A program made the position numbers and the translations under genes. The notes beneath the pieces were generated by a model that saw only the letters and a program-made list of their open reading frames with translations, was not told where the DNA came from and searched no databases. A stretch of DNA of 64,000 bases from Patescibacteria group bacterium (GTDB taxonomy: Bacteria > Patescibacteriota > Microgenomatia > UBA8517): assembly GCA_022868165.1 (NCBI GenBank), contig JALHYA010000004.1, forward strand, positions 83,432 to 147,431, given 5' to 3'. Shown one piece after another: positions 19,425 through 33,377 of this stretch; within the stretch, counting starts at the first letter, position 1; the number at the start of each line of letters is the position of its first letter.

Positions 19425-20270
19425 GTGGAAAATTCATTTAAATCTTTAATTGATTCTGCCTCATCAATATTAATTCTTCTGCCTTCCAAACCTTACTTCG
19501 ACCAGGTAGCGGCAGGGCTTTCTCTTTATCTGTCCCTAATGGGGCAAAAGAATGTCAACATTTCCTGTCCTTCTCCGATGTTGGTTGAGTTTAATAGGCT
19601 GGTTGGAGTAAATAAAATTGTTACGGAGACAGGGAACAAGAATTTGACTTTAAAATTTTCCGATTACCCGGCCGATAATATAGAAAAAGTCAGTTACGAT
19701 ATTGAAAACGGTGAGTTTAAGCTTATGGTTGTACCAAAGCCGGGTTTTACTTCACCAAAAAAGGAGCAGATTGATCTTAACTATTCGGGAGTTTCGGCAG
19801 ACACGGTAATTCTTGTGGGCGGAGCCAACGAGTCACACTTTCCCAATCTAAGCACTAAAGATTTTGAGGCAGCAAAATTAATCCACATAGGCGTCAGAGG
19901 GCTTTCTCTTGGAAACAAACAAATTATGTCATTTGCCAAACCGGCCTCCTCGGCCTCGGAGCTGGTTGCCACTTTAATTAAACAAAGCGGTTATAGCCTC
20001 GATGCGGATATCGCCACAAACCTAGTGATGGGGATAGAAGAAGGAAGTAACCGTTTTACAAACTCCGATGTTACTGCGGAAACCTTCGAAATTTTTGCAC
20101 AGTTATTGAAAGCTGGAGGCCAAAGACTTCCAACACAAAAAGTCGAGAGGGCTCCCTTCCCGCAAGGAGCAATTCCCGGAGAGGAAATAAAACTTGAGAA
20201 AGTTGAGAAGAAGGAAGCACCGAAAGACTGGCTGGAGCCAAAAATCTTCAAAGGTACCTCGGTAAGTTAA
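19425..20270 (+). CDS. Degenerate DHH-family (NrnA-like) protein lacking the catalytic motifs and the DHHA1 domain
   Basis: Aligns with the NrnA DHH domain (SILILLPSKPYFDQVAAGLSLYLSL; ADTVILVGGANE; LIHIGVRG in place of the IDHH motif; GIEEGSNRF in place of GDTGRF). No DHHA1/GGGH domain; Lys/Glu-rich C-terminus. Occupies the slot where rbfA/DHH/truB usually lie between infB and rpsO. Confidence 0.45.
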   Translation: MENSFKSLIDSASSILILLPSKPYFDQVAAGLSLYLSLMGQKNVNISCPSPMLVEFNRLVGVNKIVTETGNKNLTLKFSDYPADNIEKVSYDIENGEFKLMVVPKPGFTSPKKEQIDLNYSGVSADTVILVGGANESHFPNLSTKDFEAAKLIHIGVRGLSLGNKQIMSFAKPASSASELVATLIKQSGYSLDADIATNLVMGIEEGSNRFTNSDVTAETFEIFAQLLKAGGQRLPTQKVERAPFPQGAIPGEEIKLEKVEKKEAPKDWLEPKIFKGTSVS

Positions 20271-20742: not shown

Positions 20743-22989
20743 ATGAAGAAAACAGAAAAAAGTATCGAGTTAGGAGGAAGAAAATTAACCCTTCAAACTG
20801 GAATTTTAGCCCAACAGGCTTCCGGCGCCGTTGTGGCCACCTATGGAGAAACCGTTGTCTTGGCAACGGTTGTTGCGTCTCCCATGAAGGTGGATCCCGG
20901 ATATTTCCCACTCTTTGTTGAGTATCAAGAAAGGTTATATGCCGGAGGAAGAATAAAAGGTAGCCGTTGGGTTAAGCGTGAAGGCCGTCCGACAGACGAG
21001 GAAATTCTTTCGGCCAGATTGATAGACAGGTCGGTTCGCCCTCTTTTTCTTGAGAACTACAAAAAAGACGTACAGGTAATGATTACAGTTCTTTCGGTTG
21101 ATATTGAAAATGACCCTTCAATTCTTTCGGCAATTGCAGCTTCTGCGGCCATTGCAATCTCCCCCATTCCCTGGAAGGGACCGGTGGGAACCATAAGAGT
21201 CGGCAAAAAAGACGGAACTTATTTTACAAACCCATTGGATTCGGAACAAGCCTTTTCGGAGATGGATTTGGTTGTTTCATCCACAAAAGATGCGGTTTTG
21301 ATGGTTGAGGCCGGAGCCAAAGAAGTTGGCGAAGAAGATATTTTGGCTGGAATTAAATACGCCCAAGACGAGACGAAGAAGGTTATAGAGGCAATTGAAG
21401 ATTTGGCCAAAGAAGTCGGTGTTAAAAAAGAACCGGCTCCCGAGGCAGAAGTTAATGCGGGAGTTAAGTCTAAGGTCAAGAAGTTGCTTGACGGAAGGGA
21501 AGACAAGTTAATCGAAAGCATGGCTGCCCATGAAGGTGGTCTAATTGAGCTTGATGAAATAAAGGCGGCCATTTCACAAGAGCTTGCGGAAGAAAATCCC
21601 CAAGTTATATCTACCGCAATAGAGAAGATTCTCAAAGAAAAAGCCCGAGAAATCACAATTAAAGGAAAGAGAGTCGATGGAAGAAAGACCGATGAAATAA
21701 GACCGCTTTCGAGTCAAGTTGGAGTATTACCAAGAACACACGGAAGCGCAATTTTCCAAAGAGGTCAAACCCAGGTATTGACTGTAACAACTCTTGGTGC
21801 CCCGTCTATGGAACAGCTTCTGGAAAGCGCCGAAGGCGAAGAATCTAAGCGCTATATCCACCATTATTCAATGCCTCCTTATTCAACCGGCCAGACTGGC
21901 AGGGTGGGCTATCCTTCAAGGCGGGAAATTGGACACGGAGCGTTAGCCGAAAAAGCTCTCGAGCCGTTGCTTCCTTCCGACGAAAAGTTTCCTTATACAA
22001 TTAGGGTAGTTTCCGAAGTAACCAGCTCAAACGGGTCGACCTCTATGGCTTCGGTTTGCGGCTCAACGCTTTCTCTTATGGATGCAGGAGTTCCCATAAC
22101 AGCCCCTGTTTCCGGAATAGCAATGGGATTGGTTATAGAGGATGCAAAGAAATTCGTAGTTTTGTCGGACATTATGGGTATGGAAGATTATATGGTCGGC
22201 GATATGGATTTTAAGGTTGCCGGAACCAAAAAAGGAATCACCGCACTTCAACTCGATGTCAAAACCCTAAATCTCAATCTTGATATTCTTGAAAAGGCCT
22301 TGGCCCAAGCAAAAGTTGGACGCGCACTTATCCTCAAATCAATTCTAGAGACATTAGAAGAGCCGAGAAAGAATGTTTCTGCATACGCGCCGAAGATTAA
22401 AGTTTTGAAAGTATCCCCCGAGAAAATTGGAGGGGTTATTGGACCAGGGGGCAGGATGATAAAAAAGATTATTGCAGAGACCGGTGCGGAAGTTGATATC
22501 GAAGATGACGGGAGTGTAAATATCTCTGCTACTACAGAAGAAGCGGTAAATAAAGCAACTGAAATGGTAGAAGCTTTGACAAAGGAAGTTGTTGCGGGTG
22601 AGATTTATGAGGGAGTTGTTAAAAGAATTCAGCCGTTTGGAGCTTTTGTTGAGATTTTGCCGGGGAAGGATGGACTAGTTCATGTTTCCGATATGTCGGA
22701 GGAATTTGTCAAAAATCCCGAGGATGTGGTCAAAATCGGCGGCAAAGTTCAAGTTAGAGTCAAGGAGATTGATGACCTTGGAAGAATCAATCTTTCAATG
22801 GTAATGAATCCGGAATTTGACAAAAAGAAAGCAGAAAGAGGAGGATTTCAGAGGGGTGGAAGACCCCAACAGAGTAGAGGTTTTGGCGGTGGCGGAAGAA
22901 GATTTGACTCAAGGGCTGGTGGTCGACCGTCGGGACCTCATTTTCCGACAAGCCGATTCTTAGGTCCCAAGAAGGACTTCAATAGGTAA
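20743..22989 (+). CDS. pnp: Polyribonucleotide nucleotidyltransferase (PNPase)
   Basis: Two RNase PH-like domains, KH, S1, Gly/Arg-rich tail. ...GSMPPYSTGQTGRVG... and ...SNGSTSMASVCGSTLSLMDAGVPI.... Confidence 0.95.
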   Translation: MKKTEKSIELGGRKLTLQTGILAQQASGAVVATYGETVVLATVVASPMKVDPGYFPLFVEYQERLYAGGRIKGSRWVKREGRPTDEEILSARLIDRSVRPLFLENYKKDVQVMITVLSVDIENDPSILSAIAASAAIAISPIPWKGPVGTIRVGKKDGTYFTNPLDSEQAFSEMDLVVSSTKDAVLMVEAGAKEVGEEDILAGIKYAQDETKKVIEAIEDLAKEVGVKKEPAPEAEVNAGVKSKVKKLLDGREDKLIESMAAHEGGLIELDEIKAAISQELAEENPQVISTAIEKILKEKAREITIKGKRVDGRKTDEIRPLSSQVGVLPRTHGSAIFQRGQTQVLTVTTLGAPSMEQLLESAEGEESKRYIHHYSMPPYSTGQTGRVGYPSRREIGHGALAEKALEPLLPSDEKFPYTIRVVSEVTSSNGSTSMASVCGSTLSLMDAGVPITAPVSGIAMGLVIEDAKKFVVLSDIMGMEDYMVGDMDFKVAGTKKGITALQLDVKTLNLNLDILEKALAQAKVGRALILKSILETLEEPRKNVSAYAPKIKVLKVSPEKIGGVIGPGGRMIKKIIAETGAEVDIEDDGSVNISATTEEAVNKATEMVEALTKEVVAGEIYEGVVKRIQPFGAFVEILPGKDGLVHVSDMSEEFVKNPEDVVKIGGKVQVRVKEIDDLGRINLSMVMNPEFDKKKAERGGFQRGGRPQQSRGFGGGGRRFDSRAGGRPSGPHFPTSRFLGPKKDFNR

Positions 22990-23019: not shown

Positions 23020-24066
23020 ATGGATGCTGCCTCTGCCGAAATTAGTTCATTAGAACAAAAAGTTAAAACCGCAAATATTCCCGATAAGCTCAGGGAAATT
23101 GTAGAAGTTAGACTTGAGCAGTTAACAAAGCTGACAAACTCTCCCACTTTCCTTCCGGAGTTTGACACGATAAGCCGTTATATCGATTGGATAACAACTC
23201 TTCCATGGAACATGCGAACTCAGGACAATTTGGACTTGGAAAACGCCAAGAAGATTTTGGACAAGAACCATTACGGTCTCGCCGATATTAAAATTAGGAT
23301 CTTGGAATATATTTCTGTGATGAAACTAAAGCAAGAGAAAGGAGAAGGGCAAGATATTTACAGAGCTCCAATACTTTGCTTTGTCGGCTTGGTCGGAACG
23401 GGTAAGACTACCATTGCTTTCTCCATAGCCGAGGCTTTGGGCAGAAAGTTTGCCAGGATTCCTTTCGGCGGAATGGGCGACCCGTTGGATTTAAGGGGCC
23501 AGTCGCGAATGCATCCCGAGGCCGAGCCGGGAAAAATAATTAAATCCCTAAAAACCACGCAAAGCAAAAATTCGGTTATCCTTTTGGATGAAATCGACAG
23601 GGTAACGGATATGGGAAGAGCTTCAATAATGGGAGTTTTGGTTGAACTACTGGATCCCGAGCAAAATCACGAATTTATCGATCACTATATCGACTATCCT
23701 TTTTACCTTTCCGAAGCTCTTTTTATTGCTACCGCAAACAATACAACAAATATTTCAACAGCCGTTTTGGATAGGTTGGAGCCTATCGCCATGCCTTCAT
23801 ATTCGGATACCGAAAAAATCGCAATTGGCTCAAGATATGTTTTTCCCAGGGCGCAAGTTCAAGCGGGGATACCACAGGGAGCATTGACGATTGACGAAGA
23901 CGTTTGGCCGTTTATTGTAAGACCTTTAGGATACGATGCAGGTATAAGGACGCTGGAGCGTACAATCGAAGGTATTGTTAGAAAAGTTGCCATGATGATG
24001 GTAGAAGGCAAGGGCAAATCCTTCAGAATTACCCAAGCCAATGTAAAAGAATTTTTGCCCCAGTAA
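23020..24066 (+). CDS. Lon-like AAA+ ATPase module without LON N-domain and without S16 protease domain
   Basis: YIDWITTLPW..LDLENAKKILDKNHYGLADIKIRILEY (Lon pre-AAA helical region). Walker A GLVGTGKTT, Walker B VILLDEIDR, sensor-1 FIATANN, sensor-2/Arg in DAGIRTLER. The ORF ends cleanly after ...VKEFLPQ with TAA, abutting the UDG start. No serine-protease domain. Confidence 0.7.
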   Translation: MDAASAEISSLEQKVKTANIPDKLREIVEVRLEQLTKLTNSPTFLPEFDTISRYIDWITTLPWNMRTQDNLDLENAKKILDKNHYGLADIKIRILEYISVMKLKQEKGEGQDIYRAPILCFVGLVGTGKTTIAFSIAEALGRKFARIPFGGMGDPLDLRGQSRMHPEAEPGKIIKSLKTTQSKNSVILLDEIDRVTDMGRASIMGVLVELLDPEQNHEFIDHYIDYPFYLSEALFIATANNTTNISTAVLDRLEPIAMPSYSDTEKIAIGSRYVFPRAQVQAGIPQGALTIDEDVWPFIVRPLGYDAGIRTLERTIEGIVRKVAMMMVEGKGKSFRITQANVKEFLPQ

Positions 24067-24068
24067 AG

Positions 24069-24692
24069 ATGACGAGAGAAGAAAAACAGAAATTGCTCGA
24101 CGATTTAAAAGAAAAGATGCTCCACGACGAAAGTCTTCCTTTAAAGCATGGCGCGACCAATTTGGTTTTCGGAGAAGGTAACCCGGAGGCACAAATCTTC
24201 TTTTTAGGCGAAGGACCGGGATACTGGGAAGATATTAAAGGAAGGCCCTTTGTAGGGAATGCCGGGGCGCTTCTAAATCAGTTGCTTTATTCGATTGAAT
24301 TGCCCAGGGAGGAAGTATTCATAACGAATGTTGTTTGTTTTCGGCCTCCCAACAATAGGGATCCGGAGCCGGCAGAAATTGAGGCTTTTCAAAAATATAT
24401 TGATGAAATGATAAAAATAATCGGGCCAAAAGTTATTGTAACTTTGGGCAGGTTTTCTATGGGAAAGTTTTTGTCCGGCGCAAGAATTAGTTCTGTCCAT
24501 GGCAAAACTTTCAGAGTAAACTGGAAAGTAAGCGAGATTACTGTGGTTCCCATGTACCATCCCGCTGCCGCACTAAGAAACGGGGAGGTAATGGCGCAGA
24601 TTAAGGCAGACTTTTTGAAGCTGCCGGAGGTGTTAAAGGAAGTTGAAAACTCGGATGAGAAATTATCCTCCGAGCAAATGAGTTTGGTATGA
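24069..24692 (+). CDS. Uracil-DNA glycosylase, family 4
   Basis: ...GATNLVFGEGNPEAQIFFLGEGPGYWEDIKGRPFVGNAGALLNQLL...FITNVVCFRPPNNRDP...MYHPAAALRN (GEGPG and HPS/A motifs of UDG family 4). Confidence 0.8.
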   Translation: MTREEKQKLLDDLKEKMLHDESLPLKHGATNLVFGEGNPEAQIFFLGEGPGYWEDIKGRPFVGNAGALLNQLLYSIELPREEVFITNVVCFRPPNNRDPEPAEIEAFQKYIDEMIKIIGPKVIVTLGRFSMGKFLSGARISSVHGKTFRVNWKVSEITVVPMYHPAAALRNGEVMAQIKADFLKLPEVLKEVENSDEKLSSEQMSLV

Positions 24693-26353
24693 AAGACAAA
24701 CAAACCGCTCTAAAATTTATTGCGCTCTCCGGAACAACGGGAGTGACGGAAAATTTTTATATTTATGAATACGGCGACGATATGATTGTCGTCGATTGTG
24801 GCGTGGGATTCCCCGAGCCCGAAATGTTCGGAGTTGATTTGGTTATTCCGGATTTTACCTATGTAAAAAATAATGCCAGGAAGCTTCGGGGAATTTTGAT
24901 TTCGCATGGACATGAAGACCACTTGGGAGCTTTACCGTTTCTTATGAAGCAGGTAAGAGCTCCAATTTATGCTTCGAAATTGGTAGCAGGTTTAATCAGG
25001 GATAAATTTGTGGATTACGACGCAAAAGTAGACAACCTACAGGTTTTCGACCCGGAAAAAGATATTTTATCGCTTGGAGTTTTTAGGGTTACACCGTTTA
25101 GAGTTTCCCACTCAATTCCGGACGCAGTAGGTTTTTGTATAGATACACCCGAAGGAAAAGTGTTCCATGTTCCGGATTATAAATTCGACTGGACGCCGGT
25201 TGACGACCGTCCGTTTGATATAGCAAAAGCTGCAATCTTGGCATCCAACGATACTTTGGCATTGGCCTCGGACTGTATAGGGGCAACCTCTCCGGGATAT
25301 ACGGAAAGCGAAGCTGCGATAGAAGGAAGAATTGAGGAAATTGTCAGAAAAGCCGTGGGCCAAATTTTCTTTACCACAATTTCCTCAAATATTTCCAGAA
25401 TGCAGCAGGCTCTAAATGTAGCATTAAGGCTTGGCAGAAAAGCAGTTTTTATCGGCCGCTCGATTGATAGAAAGTCCGCGATTGCCAAGGAGCTGGGATA
25501 TCTGCATTATCCGGAAGATTTGGTAATTTCTTCAAAGAAGATAGGCAAAATGCCGAAAAATAAACTTATGTACATTATCTCCGGCAGCTATGGTCAGCCG
25601 GGTAGCGCTCTCTATCGTTTGGCTATGGGAGAACACGAATTTTTGAAGTTAAGTCAGGAAGACGTGGTTGTTTTCTCTTCCGACCCGGCGCCTCCCGGTT
25701 CGAAAGCAAACGTAGATTCTGTTGTGGACAAGCTTATTGAATCCAACGCCGATGTTCATTATTACGACATGCAGGAAGATTTGCATGTTTCCGGCCACGG
25801 AAGCATGAAAGATATAGAAATGTTATTTGCCGTCATTAAACCAAAATATTTTATCCCAATAGGGGGAACAATAAGGCACATGAGGGCATACAGTTTGATA
25901 GCCCAGTCGATGGGAGCAACACCCGAAAGGGTTTTCAAGCTTCTTCCTGGACAAGTTGTTGAATATAAAAACGGCAGTGCGCGGCTGGCCGGGAAAGTTC
26001 AAGTCAAAGATGTCTTGGTTGACGGTCTTGGAATAGGAGACGTAGGAAATGTTGTTTTGAGAGATAGACACATACTTGCCAAGGACGGAATTGCGATAGC
26101 TCTTTTGCAGTTTGATAGGAATGAAGGCAGGTTATTAAGCGAGCCGGATATTTTAAGTAGAGGTTTCGTTTATGAAGCTAAAGGAAAAGATTTTCTGAAT
26201 AAAGCATCCAGGTCTCTTAGACAGGAATTGGATAAACACGGAAAAATCGATGCCAAAAGAACAAGAGATATTTCTATAGACTTTCTTGAAAGATTCTTCT
26301 TTACGGAGATTGGCCGAAGACCAATGGTACTACCTGTAGTGGTAGAGGTCTAA
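24689..26353 (+). CDS. rnj: Ribonuclease J (metallo-beta-lactamase / beta-CASP RNase)
   Basis: ...ILISHGHEDHLGALPFL... MBL motif HxHxDH, beta-CASP region, C-terminal domain. 554 aa. Confidence 0.85.
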   Translation: MKDKQTALKFIALSGTTGVTENFYIYEYGDDMIVVDCGVGFPEPEMFGVDLVIPDFTYVKNNARKLRGILISHGHEDHLGALPFLMKQVRAPIYASKLVAGLIRDKFVDYDAKVDNLQVFDPEKDILSLGVFRVTPFRVSHSIPDAVGFCIDTPEGKVFHVPDYKFDWTPVDDRPFDIAKAAILASNDTLALASDCIGATSPGYTESEAAIEGRIEEIVRKAVGQIFFTTISSNISRMQQALNVALRLGRKAVFIGRSIDRKSAIAKELGYLHYPEDLVISSKKIGKMPKNKLMYIISGSYGQPGSALYRLAMGEHEFLKLSQEDVVVFSSDPAPPGSKANVDSVVDKLIESNADVHYYDMQEDLHVSGHGSMKDIEMLFAVIKPKYFIPIGGTIRHMRAYSLIAQSMGATPERVFKLLPGQVVEYKNGSARLAGKVQVKDVLVDGLGIGDVGNVVLRDRHILAKDGIAIALLQFDRNEGRLLSEPDILSRGFVYEAKGKDFLNKASRSLRQELDKHGKIDAKRTRDISIDFLERFFFTEIGRRPMVLPVVVEV

Positions 26354-31205: not shown

Positions 31206-33377
31206 ATGGATTTAAAGAGCATTTTAGGTGGCCGCGAAGAAAAAAGCAGAGAGCTCTACTGGGCTTTGGTAATTGAACCCTCTTGGATTCAAGCTGGTAT
31301 TTGGGAAATTGTTGCCGGTAAAGCAAACGTAACTTCAATCAGTCCCTCCGCGGCTTGGGAAACCGAAGAGGAAATGATTGCCGCTGCGGATACCGCCCTA
31401 TCGGCTTCTGTTCAAAGCCTTCCCGAAGAAGCCCCCGAGCCTTCAAAGACGGTTTTTGGCGTTGCCTCCCTATGGGTTGCCAATGGACAGATTAAAGATG
31501 AATATCTTTCAAAAATCAGGAAAATCTGTGCGGAACTTTCTCTCCAACCTGTTGGTTTTGTCGTAATTCCGGAAGCGGTTGCCCATCTTGTCAAATCCGA
31601 AGAATCCACCCCCCTAAACGGGATAGTTGTAGGCATCGGGGCTGAAGAACTGGAGCTTTCCCTCTTTAGATTGGGAAACCTGATAGGAACAACGCAGGTT
31701 TCAAGAAGTGTTTCTTTGGCAGAGGATGTTACCGAAGGGCTTACCCGCTTTAACCAAACGGAGCCTCTTCCTTCAAGAATTTTGATTTATGACGGTAAAG
31801 AAGGAGAGTTGGAGGACGAAAGGCAAAGCCTGATAAAAACAAATTGGGAAGATTTCGAGAAGCTTAAATTTTTGCATACTCCAAAAGTTGAAGTCTTGGA
31901 GCCGGATAGAAAGGTTCTGGCAACATCATTGGCTGGAGCATCGGAGATTGCTAATGTTTCTGCGGTCGAAAGCCCGAAAGTAGAACGCTTTACCGGGGAG
32001 GACGAAACCCAGGAAGACGTAGAAAACGTAAAGGCTCCGGAAAAAGAAGTTACCGCAGAGGAGCTGGGGTTTGTGGTTGGACAGGATGTCAGAACAAACC
32101 AAGAAGTGCCGCAGCCAGTTGCCCCAACTTTACCCCCGAAGGAAATTCCTCGTCCTGCCGCAAGCGTTCGTCATCTCAAGCCGCCCGCCATATTAGGTTT
32201 TTTTAAGAAAATCCATTTGCCGAAATTCCGGTTGCCGATTTTGGGAACTCAGCCATTTATTGTCGCCGGAATTTTCCTTGGTCTTCTTTTTATTGCAGGT
32301 TTTATCTATTGGTGGACCGTTCCAACTGCCGACGTAACAATCTTTGTTTCTCCCAAGAAATTGAATGAGAATGTTTCGATGAAAATTTCCACCAGTGTGA
32401 CCAATCCGGATATAAACGCCAAGGTTCTTCCCGGCAAAGTTTTGACGACTGATGTTTCGGGAGATAAGACAATCCAAACGACCGGCACAAAGGTGATTGG
32501 GGACAAGGCAAAGGGCTCGGTGAATATAAGAAACGGAACTGCATCTGCCTTGGATCTTCCGGCCGGAACCGTAATTTACGGAACAAACGATCTTCAGTAC
32601 ACCCTGGATCAAGAAGCTTCGGTTTCGGCACAAATTTCCCCGGGTACCCCCGGCACAGCGACCGTTAACGTGACTGCTTCGGATATCGGCACTCAATATA
32701 ATTTGGATAAGGACGTGTCTTTTAAGGTTTCAAATTATCCGCAGTCAGTGGTCGATGCCGTTTCGACCGCAACATTCGCCGGGGGTTCGAGCCGTGATAT
32801 TTCTTCGGTTTCCGAAGACGACCAAAAAAATTTGGAGAAAACGCTTACCGATGAACTTTTGGATAAGGCTAAAGATAAACTGTCCAAATTGGTTGACCAA
32901 GGAATGTATTTTGTTGGCGACGGCCTTGTTTTAACAGAAGTATCGAAAGATTTCAGCAACAAAGTTGGAGACGAGGCCTCAAATCTTAAACTTTCGCTTT
33001 CCCTTAGTGTCCAGGGTTTGGAGGTAGATAAAAAAGCATATGTGGAATTGGCCAAATCCGCTCTTTCCGCGAAAGCTCCCTCGGGGTTTGTTTTAAGGGA
33101 AGACCAAATAAAAGGAAATTTCGATTTCAAGAAAAAAGACGGCAACACTTATTTTTTCGACATAGCATTTAGCGCCAACTTGCTTCCACAAATAAACACG
33201 GCGGATATCACAAAGAACATTGTTGGGAGGCAGCAATCCGTTGCGGAAACCTATCTTACCAGTATTCCCGGCTTCTCGCGGGTTGATATTAATCTAAAAC
33301 CCCGTCTGCCGGGAAGACTCGGAAGCCTTCCGAGAATAGAAAAGCATATTCATATCACTATTGACTCCGAACGATGA
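31206..33377 (+). CDS. Large bitopic membrane protein: cytoplasmic domain with faint actin-like (PilM/FtsA-like, degenerate) features, one TM, large extracytoplasmic beta-rich domain
   Basis: About 340-aa N-terminal domain (ELYWALVIEPSWIQAGIWEIV...; VVGIGAEELELSLFRLGNLIGTT... reminiscent of actin-fold phosphate motifs but degenerate), TM FIVAGIFLGLLFIAGFIYWW, about 350-aa exported domain. 4-nt overlap with the downstream sortase gene. Confidence 0.4.
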   Translation: MDLKSILGGREEKSRELYWALVIEPSWIQAGIWEIVAGKANVTSISPSAAWETEEEMIAAADTALSASVQSLPEEAPEPSKTVFGVASLWVANGQIKDEYLSKIRKICAELSLQPVGFVVIPEAVAHLVKSEESTPLNGIVVGIGAEELELSLFRLGNLIGTTQVSRSVSLAEDVTEGLTRFNQTEPLPSRILIYDGKEGELEDERQSLIKTNWEDFEKLKFLHTPKVEVLEPDRKVLATSLAGASEIANVSAVESPKVERFTGEDETQEDVENVKAPEKEVTAEELGFVVGQDVRTNQEVPQPVAPTLPPKEIPRPAASVRHLKPPAILGFFKKIHLPKFRLPILGTQPFIVAGIFLGLLFIAGFIYWWTVPTADVTIFVSPKKLNENVSMKISTSVTNPDINAKVLPGKVLTTDVSGDKTIQTTGTKVIGDKAKGSVNIRNGTASALDLPAGTVIYGTNDLQYTLDQEASVSAQISPGTPGTATVNVTASDIGTQYNLDKDVSFKVSNYPQSVVDAVSTATFAGGSSRDISSVSEDDQKNLEKTLTDELLDKAKDKLSKLVDQGMYFVGDGLVLTEVSKDFSNKVGDEASNLKLSLSLSVQGLEVDKKAYVELAKSALSAKAPSGFVLREDQIKGNFDFKKKDGNTYFFDIAFSANLLPQINTADITKNIVGRQQSVAETYLTSIPGFSRVDINLKPRLPGRLGSLPRIEKHIHITIDSER

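Follow-up and report, generated by a model that had tools for sequence, protein, structure and literature searches.

A LonA-like AAA+ ATPase family without a protease domain in bacteria of the candidate phyla radiation

Introduction

ClpX and HslU are stand-alone AAA+ unfoldases of the HCLR clade; their pore loops are aromatic, and each binds its own peptidase through specific loops or tails. In LonA, represented by E. coli Lon, B. subtilis LonA, and human LONP1, an N-terminal substrate-binding domain and an S16 Ser-Lys protease domain accompany the AAA+ module on one polypeptide. Here, we describe a gene that encodes only the AAA+ module of LonA. It lies at positions 23020-24066 on the plus strand of a 64,000-nucleotide stretch of DNA (hereafter, the window) from a Patescibacteria group bacterium (assembly GCA_022868165.1, contig JALHYA010000004.1, positions 83,432 to 147,431), and it belongs to a family found in two classes of the candidate phyla radiation (CPR), Woesebacteria/Microgenomates and Dojkabacteria. 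The window protein resembles LonA in its three-helix bundle, the YxDW..LPW motif, Walker A and B, sensor-1, the Arg finger, the Lon_lid domain, and sensor-2. It differs from LonA in having neither the N-terminal substrate-binding domain nor the S16 Ser-Lys protease domain, in altered pore loops 1 and 2, and in a Walker A of GLVGTGKT as opposed to GPPGVGKT.

Other described systems come close in one respect or another. Like ClpX and HslU, the window protein has one AAA+ module and no peptidase fused to it; unlike them, its CPR family has no conserved pore aromatic, and searches of the window and of 10 kb on either side of the gene at 71 related loci yielded no partner. The boundaries of the protein are the same as those of E. 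coli Lon 235-584 (structure 6N2I), a limited-proteolysis product made up of the AAA+ module and some of the HI(CC) helices. However, 6N2I is a laboratory fragment of a protease, whereas the window ATPase is a natural gene product, maintained by selection, with changed pore loops. LonC (e.g., of Meiothermus taiwanensis) is likewise a Lon relative in which one of the two Lon activities has been given up (PMC3391209, PMC13069640). LonC is the mirror image of the CPR family: it still has its protease but is without ATPase activity, whereas in the CPR family the protease is gone and the ATPase remains.

Results

Gene product and domain content

The open reading frame (ORF) begins with ATG, ends with TAA, and encodes 348 amino acids (39 kDa, pI 5.6); an upstream in-frame stop codon ends 6 nucleotides before the ATG. 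All features described below are on the plus strand. Pfam matches the product at residues 119-255 (AAA) and 282-333 (Lon_lid) and nowhere else, and neither Lon_C (PF05362) nor LON_substr_bdg (PF02190) was matched within the 348 residues. Only positions 251-570 of the 795 in the NCBIfam model TIGR00763 ("endopeptidase La") are covered, and the score of 325.7 bits is below the curated equivalog cutoff of 608.05; similarly, positions 244-579 of 784 are covered in PRK10787, with 234.3 bits versus a cutoff of 891. The protein corresponds to E. coli Lon residues 244-579, i.e., the three-helix bundle, the nucleotide-binding domain, and the lid. Among solved structures, the AAA+ modules of human LONP1, B. 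subtilis LonA, and E. coli Lon matched best (E ~1e-74 to 1e-66), and identity to LonA AAA+ modules is 36-45% over 335 residues. The ORF ends 2 residues past the last position aligned to the Lon AAA+ module, and its C-terminus, ...NVKEFLPQ, is the point where LonA runs on into the protease domain. A first-pass annotation, made from the DNA letters without database searches, had described the ORF as the Lon AAA+ module only, and the Pfam, NCBIfam, and solved-structure matches are all in agreement with that description.

An AlphaFold (AF2) model of the protein has a mean predicted local distance difference test (pLDDT) score of 75. Its nearest folds are Lon AAA+ modules, and comparison with the 338-residue E. 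coli Lon fragment 6N2I gave a target-normalized TM-score (TMt) of 0.81. Residues 1-59 (23020-23196) make up an N-terminal three-helix bundle, the "3H" part of the LonA AAA+ module, which is modeled as helices 2-17, 22-37, and 44-59 with a pLDDT of ~90. The bundle aligns from Lon residue 244 and is equated with E. coli Lon helices alpha8-alpha10 on the basis of PMC6722904 and PMC8519571. The motif YIDWITTLPW (residues 54-63; 23179-23208) is kept both in LonA and in the protease-less family, with Y54, W57, P62, and W63 being invariant. At the other end, the alpha-helical lid domain occupies residues 259-348 (23794-24063), within which lies the Pfam Lon_lid match at 282-333.

Five features were considered for membership in the LonA proteases (MEROPS S16, subfamily A). 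The AAA+ module is present, but the other four, namely the N domain, the protease domain, the pore-loop-1 Tyr, and a score above the equivalog cutoff, are not. No LonB or LonC model in NCBIfam was matched at E <= 0.01, and the protein, having no protease domain and intact ATPase motifs, is not of the LonB or LonC type. Besides a protease domain, LonB has a membrane insertion in its AAA+ module, and LonC has degenerate ATPase motifs. A BrxL or other defense-related Lon-like identity was rejected, as PADLOC gave only generic AAA matches of <=20 bits and no BrxL, and the neighbors of the gene are housekeeping genes.

Distribution, conservation, and phylogeny

A first homology search recovered at least 120 proteins of 348-349 amino acids with 76-99% identity to the window protein, the named ones being from Candidatus Woesebacteria; the closest relative among the matches listed, P0001, is 99% identical. 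In species-representative genomes, the gene was found at 71 loci, with 51-80% identity. The complete copies, from 68 of these loci, range from 346 to 381 amino acids, and all have stops on both sides. Complete or near-complete genomes with the gene include CP011214.1, CP066686.1, CP066693.1, and OY970314.1 of Woesebacteria and GCA_016932785.1 of Dojkabacteria. The median identity to the window ATPase across these related loci (Woesebacteria/Microgenomates) is 73%. The corresponding medians for the neighboring genes are 60% for PNPase, 57% for IF2, 63% for RNase J, 69% for NusA, and 71% for FtsK; ribosomal protein S15, at 80%, is the only neighbor more conserved than the ATPase. Such comparisons identify the gene as a strongly conserved family member and, as judged from sequence, one under purifying selection. 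A pseudogene is excluded because the length is fixed and because the 73% identity exceeds that of most neighboring essential genes. Records with the Woesebacteria-type locus are often titled "uncultured Gammaproteobacteria" (L001, L005, L007, and others), L019 is titled "Alphaproteobacteria", and L071 "Nanoarchaeia archaeon"; these are probably mislabelled or mis-binned CPR contigs.

An exhaustive search was made of 1.84 billion cluster representatives, and the best 150 matches were sorted by architecture. Three architectures are present among them: protease-less single modules, tandem proteins in which one protease domain accompanies two or three Lon AAA+ modules, and canonical LonA. Some of the protease-less single modules carry low-complexity N-terminal extensions, tails, or a variable linker before the Walker A strand. 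A profile built from divergent protease-less members led to a second large subfamily, 347-545 amino acids in length, whose named members are from Candidatus Dojkabacteria. The two family searches each yielded at least ~8,000 related database clusters, and a precomputed Lon_C domain was absent from all 240 family matches listed by the two. In databases, members of the family are labeled "ATP-dependent Lon protease", "Lon protease", or "AAA family ATPase". The closest full-length Lon relatives that bear names are from Anaerolineales and Clostridiales, not from CPR bacteria.

In a full neighbor-joining (NJ) tree of AAA+ modules, the protease-less proteins constitute one bipartition, and in a reduced tree, 22 of the 23 protease-less representatives group with a bootstrap value of 96/100. 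The full set of 23 was not recovered as a strict clade there (30/100) because of one unstable outlier, P0171. The first-pass annotation had proposed a phylogeny of the module versus LonA, LonB, LonC, and BrxL-type proteins. The NJ tree sets the protease-less modules apart from canonical and tandem Lon, and LonB, LonC, and BrxL were compared by models. Named members of the clade come from Woesebacteria and from Dojkabacteria, and the clade spans two CPR classes. We define the clade by a single Lon AAA+ module that ends <=8 residues after the lid, by [DE]-A-E-P-G in pore loop 1, by a Walker A of G-[LIV]-x-G-x-GKT, and by monophyly with respect to canonical and tandem Lon modules. The window ATPase has these properties and is a member of this protease-less LonA-like clade of CPR bacteria. 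No description of a protease-less Lon, or of Lon in CPR bacteria, was found in full-text searches of a library with limited coverage of subscription journals; the family is apparently undescribed.

The tandem-AAA+ Lons of Dependentiae/Babeliales resemble the protease-less family in being LonA-derived, in having no Lon N domain, and in often having degenerate pore loops in some modules. They differ in having two or three AAA+ modules plus one Lon_C, and they fall outside the protease-less clade in the NJ tree. Proteins of this type, which are not encoded in the window, include P0121-P0124, P0127-P0131, P0133, P0135-P0138, P0140, P0142, and others. No description of this architecture was found, although no search aimed at tandem-AAA+ Lon was made.

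ATPase site and pore loops

The nucleotide site of the window protein consists of Walker A, GLVGTGKTT (residues 123-131; 23386-23412), Walker B, VILLDEIDR (residues 186-194; 23575-23601), sensor-1 N240 in IATANN together with the Arg finger R252 in VLDRLE (23725-23781), and, within the lid, sensor-2 R310 in DAGIRTLER (23935-23961). In window numbering, the invariant residues are K129, D190, E191, N240, R252, and R310. Intact Walker A, Walker B, sensor-1, and sensor-2 motifs had been called in the first-pass annotation; they were found where it had placed them, and their residues do not vary across relatives. The Walker A Lys, the Walker B Asp-Glu pair, and the sensor-1 Asn are present in 28/28 protease-less representatives, and the Arg finger and sensor-2 Arg in 27/28, the remaining one being a gap. 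All five ATPase features are present in 117/117 Dojkabacteria-type matches and are invariant in the Woesebacteria set. At the level of sequence, therefore, the residues that bind and hydrolyze ATP, and the Arg finger that acts between subunits, are intact throughout the clade. The family has a Walker A signature of its own, G-L-x-G-x-GKT, versus GPPGVGKT in Lon, and it has P-L-G-[FY]-D before sensor-2 in place of the Lon YTRE segment. The latter motif is missing in P0156, P0159, and P0171. It was considered as a ClpX-like "IGF" docking motif and set aside, as it lies at the nucleotide site inside the lid and not in an exposed loop.

The pore loops, in contrast to the ATPase site, are not those of Lon, a point overlooked in the first-pass annotation. 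Pore loop 1 of the window protein, RGQSRMHPEAEPGKIIK, spans residues 159-175 (23494-23544); where the Lon counterpart reads RGHRRTY[VI]GAMPGRII, the window protein has RGQSRMHPEAEPGKII. The core is H-P-E-A-E-P-G versus Y-[VI]-G-A-M-P-G in Lon, i.e., His165 stands in for the Lon Tyr, Pro166 comes next, Glu167 replaces Gly, and Glu169 replaces Met/Leu. The Tyr is present in 97/102 canonical LonA modules. Among the protease-less representatives, it is not one of the eight commonest residues at the site (which cover 25/28 sequences), and H, F, Q, E, S, or N is found there. His occupies the site in 108/121 Woesebacteria sequences, whereas the copy at locus L068 retains Tyr. In the Dojkabacteria type (n = 117), the commonest residues are Glu (30), Phe (25), Tyr (24), and Asn (17). 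Two positions beyond the Tyr site, Gly is found in 95/102 canonical modules, but Asp or Glu in 22/28 protease-less representatives and 104/117 of the Dojkabacteria type. Four positions beyond it, 89/102 canonical modules have Met or Leu, whereas Glu is found in 25/28 protease-less representatives and in every one of the 117 Dojkabacteria-type proteins.

Pore loop 2, VTDMGRASIMGVLV (residues 195-208; 23602-23643), has Gly199 at the usual LonA Phe/Tyr/Trp site, and the Lon "RGDP" motif is gone. The aromatic is itself less uniform in LonA (60/102 canonical modules), but 24/28 protease-less representatives have Gly, Ala, or Ser. In Meiothermus taiwanensis LonA (MtaLonA), Tyr397 of pore loop 1 and Trp431 of pore loop 2 touch the translocating substrate and are needed for degradation (PMC8503904). 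As aligned here, the family signature is an acidified pore loop 1 without a conserved aromatic.

Search for the missing Lon domains

N-terminal and protease pieces of eight full-length LonA genes (774-933 amino acids) from Fibrobacterota and Cloacimonadota were used as tblastn queries against all six frames of the window and of the flanks, ±10 kb, of the 71 related loci. For the protease-domain (Lon_C) pieces, no match in the window or the flanks of the 71 loci had an E-value below 0.02. The eight N domains gave none below E = 0.49 in the window, and no N-domain remnant was detected below E = 0.02 within 10 kb of the gene in the 71 loci. The weak matches obtained with Lon pieces were inside the PNPase gene. 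Neither Lon_C nor a Lon N domain was called at two Dojkabacteria-type loci, L081 and L082. No cognate peptidase was found within 10 kb of the gene across the 73 loci; L081 does contain clpP, with a Clp-type ATPase gene next to it. A nearby split protease gene, or a protease remnant, was consequently rejected for the window and the 71 loci. The first-pass annotation had found no N domain, no S16 domain, and no frameshift remnant, and this is borne out by Pfam and by the tblastn searches, which extended to the whole window and the flanks a comparison that it had suggested for a smaller region.

Gene neighborhood

The ATPase gene is tightly packed between genes for nucleic-acid enzymes. Upstream, and ending 30 nucleotides before it, is a conserved neighbor, the gene for a 748-amino-acid PNPase (20743-22989). 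Downstream, a gene of the UDG superfamily (24069-24692) begins 2 nucleotides after the TAA, and the RNase J gene (24689-26353) overlaps the end of udg by 4 nucleotides; no terminator-like site was found between pnp and rnj in the window. The clean stop abutting a UDG gene, and the pnp-lonATPase-udg-rnj string of the first-pass annotation, are thus both upheld, with the PNPase, UDG-family, and RNase J genes confirmed by Pfam. The order nusA-infB-orf-rpsO-pnp-ATPase-(variable insert)-udg-rnj-ftsK holds across the 71 loci, to the ends of their contigs, and the Dojkabacteria genome L082 has the same gene order as the Woesebacteria loci. In other Woesebacteria, the commonest insert between the ATPase gene and udg, which is not present at the window site, encodes a YfcE-like metallophosphoesterase of 158 amino acids (range 141-171) with the motif MKILIISDSHG...GDW...GNAD...GH.H (e.g., L003, L005, and L010, at 11.06-11.54 kb). 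Further inserts are PIN/toxin-antitoxin pairs, a HAD hydrolase, and GIY-YIG and LAGLIDADG (homing endonuclease) genes. A conserved partner encoded between the ATPase gene and udg was rejected; no insert is universal, and none is a peptidase.

The C-terminal ~60 amino acids of the window PNPase (22810-22986) form a basic, RGG-rich tail, and no other RGG-rich segment is encoded in the 64-kb window. The tail contains the short conserved sequence GPHFPTSR (nucleotides 22933-22956). This octapeptide is found once per locus in 63 related loci, and within the PNPase tail wherever tails were read; the tails in those loci vary from 42 to 114 amino acids. GPHFPTSR has the appearance of a docking motif within a disordered tail, and by inference only, the tail is a candidate client or docking tail for the ATPase. 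However, the motif is missing in L064, L068, L069, and L082, all of which carry the ATPase; its co-occurrence with the ATPase is therefore not strict, and phylogenetic profiles lend the client idea no support.

The window as a whole consists of densely packed housekeeping genes. No tRNA genes or Rfam families were detected at the gathering threshold anywhere in positions 1-64000, including upstream of rpsO and of the ribosomal-protein operons. Between infB and rpsO, the site of rbfA/truB in many bacteria, is a 281-amino-acid ORF with no Pfam match (19425-20270). It is present in all related loci with 30-66% identity, and an unannotated ORF of 442 amino acids is at the same position in L082. 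A 723-amino-acid ORF with a Baseplate_J-like domain (31206-33377) follows alaS among housekeeping genes; its identity in related loci is 29-55%, and a similar gene follows ftsA in Dojkabacteria L082 (18327-20876).

Discussion

We are inclined to regard the product of the window gene, from its sequence, as a non-proteolytic, ATP-driven AAA+ remodeler or chaperone. It would be a functional LonA descendant in which the N-terminal substrate-recognition and S16 protease domains were lost and the whole AAA+ module was retained. The conserved residues, and analogy with LonA, suggest that it would assemble as a Lon-like ring or spiral and hydrolyze ATP. A ring or spiral is proposed because the equivalent E. 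coli Lon fragment 235-584 (6N2I), which has ADP bound, packs as an open helical hexamer (PMC6722904). The axial pore appears to have been rebuilt: the gripping Tyr of Lon is not conserved, the pore-loop-2 aromatic is lost, and two positions of pore loop 1 are acidic. It is these rebuilt pore loops that lead us to read the ATPase as a remodeler or chaperone and not as a threader of hydrophobic degrons into a protease chamber, and the protein probably no longer feeds such a chamber. The first-pass annotation had allowed for either a stand-alone unfoldase or chaperone or an AAA+ partner of another protease. The intact ATP hydrolysis residues are in keeping with an active motor, whereas the replacement of the canonical threading residues weakens the protease-feeding option. 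Client proteins with basic, disordered segments would be a good fit for a negatively charged pore. Finally, and this is the weakest of our inferences, the position of the gene behind rpsO-pnp and ahead of udg-rnj may point to a housekeeping role in RNA or ribonucleoprotein metabolism.

Several points weigh against this reading. Threading may still be possible for the family because ~40% of the Dojkabacteria-type proteins retain Phe or Tyr at the pore-loop-1 site. The protease ring is the main hexamerization platform of Lon, and without it a stable ATPase ring may not form. The rest of the genome may also hold a gene for a separate S16 protease or another lon gene of full length. The suggestion of basic clients is drawn solely from the charge of the loop. 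The gene order differs at the Dojkabacteria-type locus L081 (yidC-L25-...-ATPase-...-ftsA-groES-groEL-clpP plus a Clp ATPase), and variable genes often sit between the ATPase gene and udg. Adjacency is also weak evidence for a functional link, as the whole region is syntenic in small genomes and the order may simply have been inherited.

A split Lon, in which the protein is the ATPase subunit of a two-component protease resembling ClpX/ClpP or HslU/HslV and a gene at another place in the genome supplies the S16 partner, perhaps along with an N-domain protein, would account for a truncation exactly at the boundary between lid and protease domain and for the full conservation of the ATPase machinery; the conserved C-terminal ...EF[LI]P could then be a docking element. 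We nevertheless consider a split Lon unlikely, as nothing similar to Lon_C or the N domain was found in the window, in the 10-kb flanks of the 71 loci, or at L081 and L082, no recurrent neighboring gene is a peptidase, and the pore residues with a role in feeding a protease (PMC8503904) are not conserved. Partnership with a non-Lon peptidase such as ClpP is brought to mind by the clpP gene 7 kb downstream of the ATPase gene in L081. This is very unlikely: clpP is adjoined there by a Clp-type ATPase gene and is not a neighbor in the other loci, and the protein follows LonA colinearly and carries no extra loop for docking, the only part that varies in length being a low-complexity stretch ahead of the Walker A strand. 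The loss of two of the three Lon domains might also suggest a decaying remnant, left by a deletion that cut a lon gene short and now in the course of disappearing. The likelihood of this is negligible in view of a length fixed at ~348 amino acids in the complete copies from 68 loci and in at least 120 database proteins, conservation greater than that of most neighboring essential genes, invariant catalytic residues, and a clade that spans two CPR classes.

A further alternative is a nucleic-acid-directed AAA+ protein, whose targets would be RNA, DNA, or the enzymes of RNA decay and which would assist PNPase/RNase J or uracil repair, with no general chaperone role. The pnp-ATPase-udg-rnj order is shared by Woesebacteria and one Dojkabacteria genome, the starts and stops are tightly packed with no terminator-like site, and the upstream PNPase has a conserved basic RGG tail with GPHFPTSR. 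LonA, moreover, binds DNA. On the other hand, an acidic pore is ill-suited to threading nucleic acid, region-wide synteny in small genomes reduces the weight of adjacency, the context is absent at L081, and the PNPase motif is missing in L064, L068, L069, and L082 despite the presence of the ATPase. We judge this alternative rather unlikely, though less so than those above.

The remodeler reading can be extended to a bolder form, in which Woesebacteria and Dojkabacteria have no proteolytic Lon at all and their sole Lon descendant is an ATPase that has given up feeding hydrophobic degrons to a protease chamber and instead grips basic, disordered tails, e.g., the RGG/GPHFPTSR tail of the PNPase encoded just upstream, via its acidic pore. 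This form is speculative and, as it stands, improbable; if true, it would amount to a new kind of AAA+ remodeler, linked in minimal cells to the decay of RNA or the assembly of ribonucleoproteins. Lon is the standard textbook example of an AAA+ motor and a protease joined in one protein, and the clade would show reuse of that motor for non-proteolytic work, with the pore chemistry inverted in a lineage that kept the motor and dropped both the protease and the recognition domain. Since members carry "Lon protease" labels, protease inventories of CPR bacteria drawn from genomes probably over-count Lon. CPR bacteria have minimal genomes and a biology of which little is known, and the family would offer a defined target for studies of their proteostasis; it is also a natural experiment on which features of Lon, such as hexamerization and the constraints on its pore loops, depend on the protease ring.

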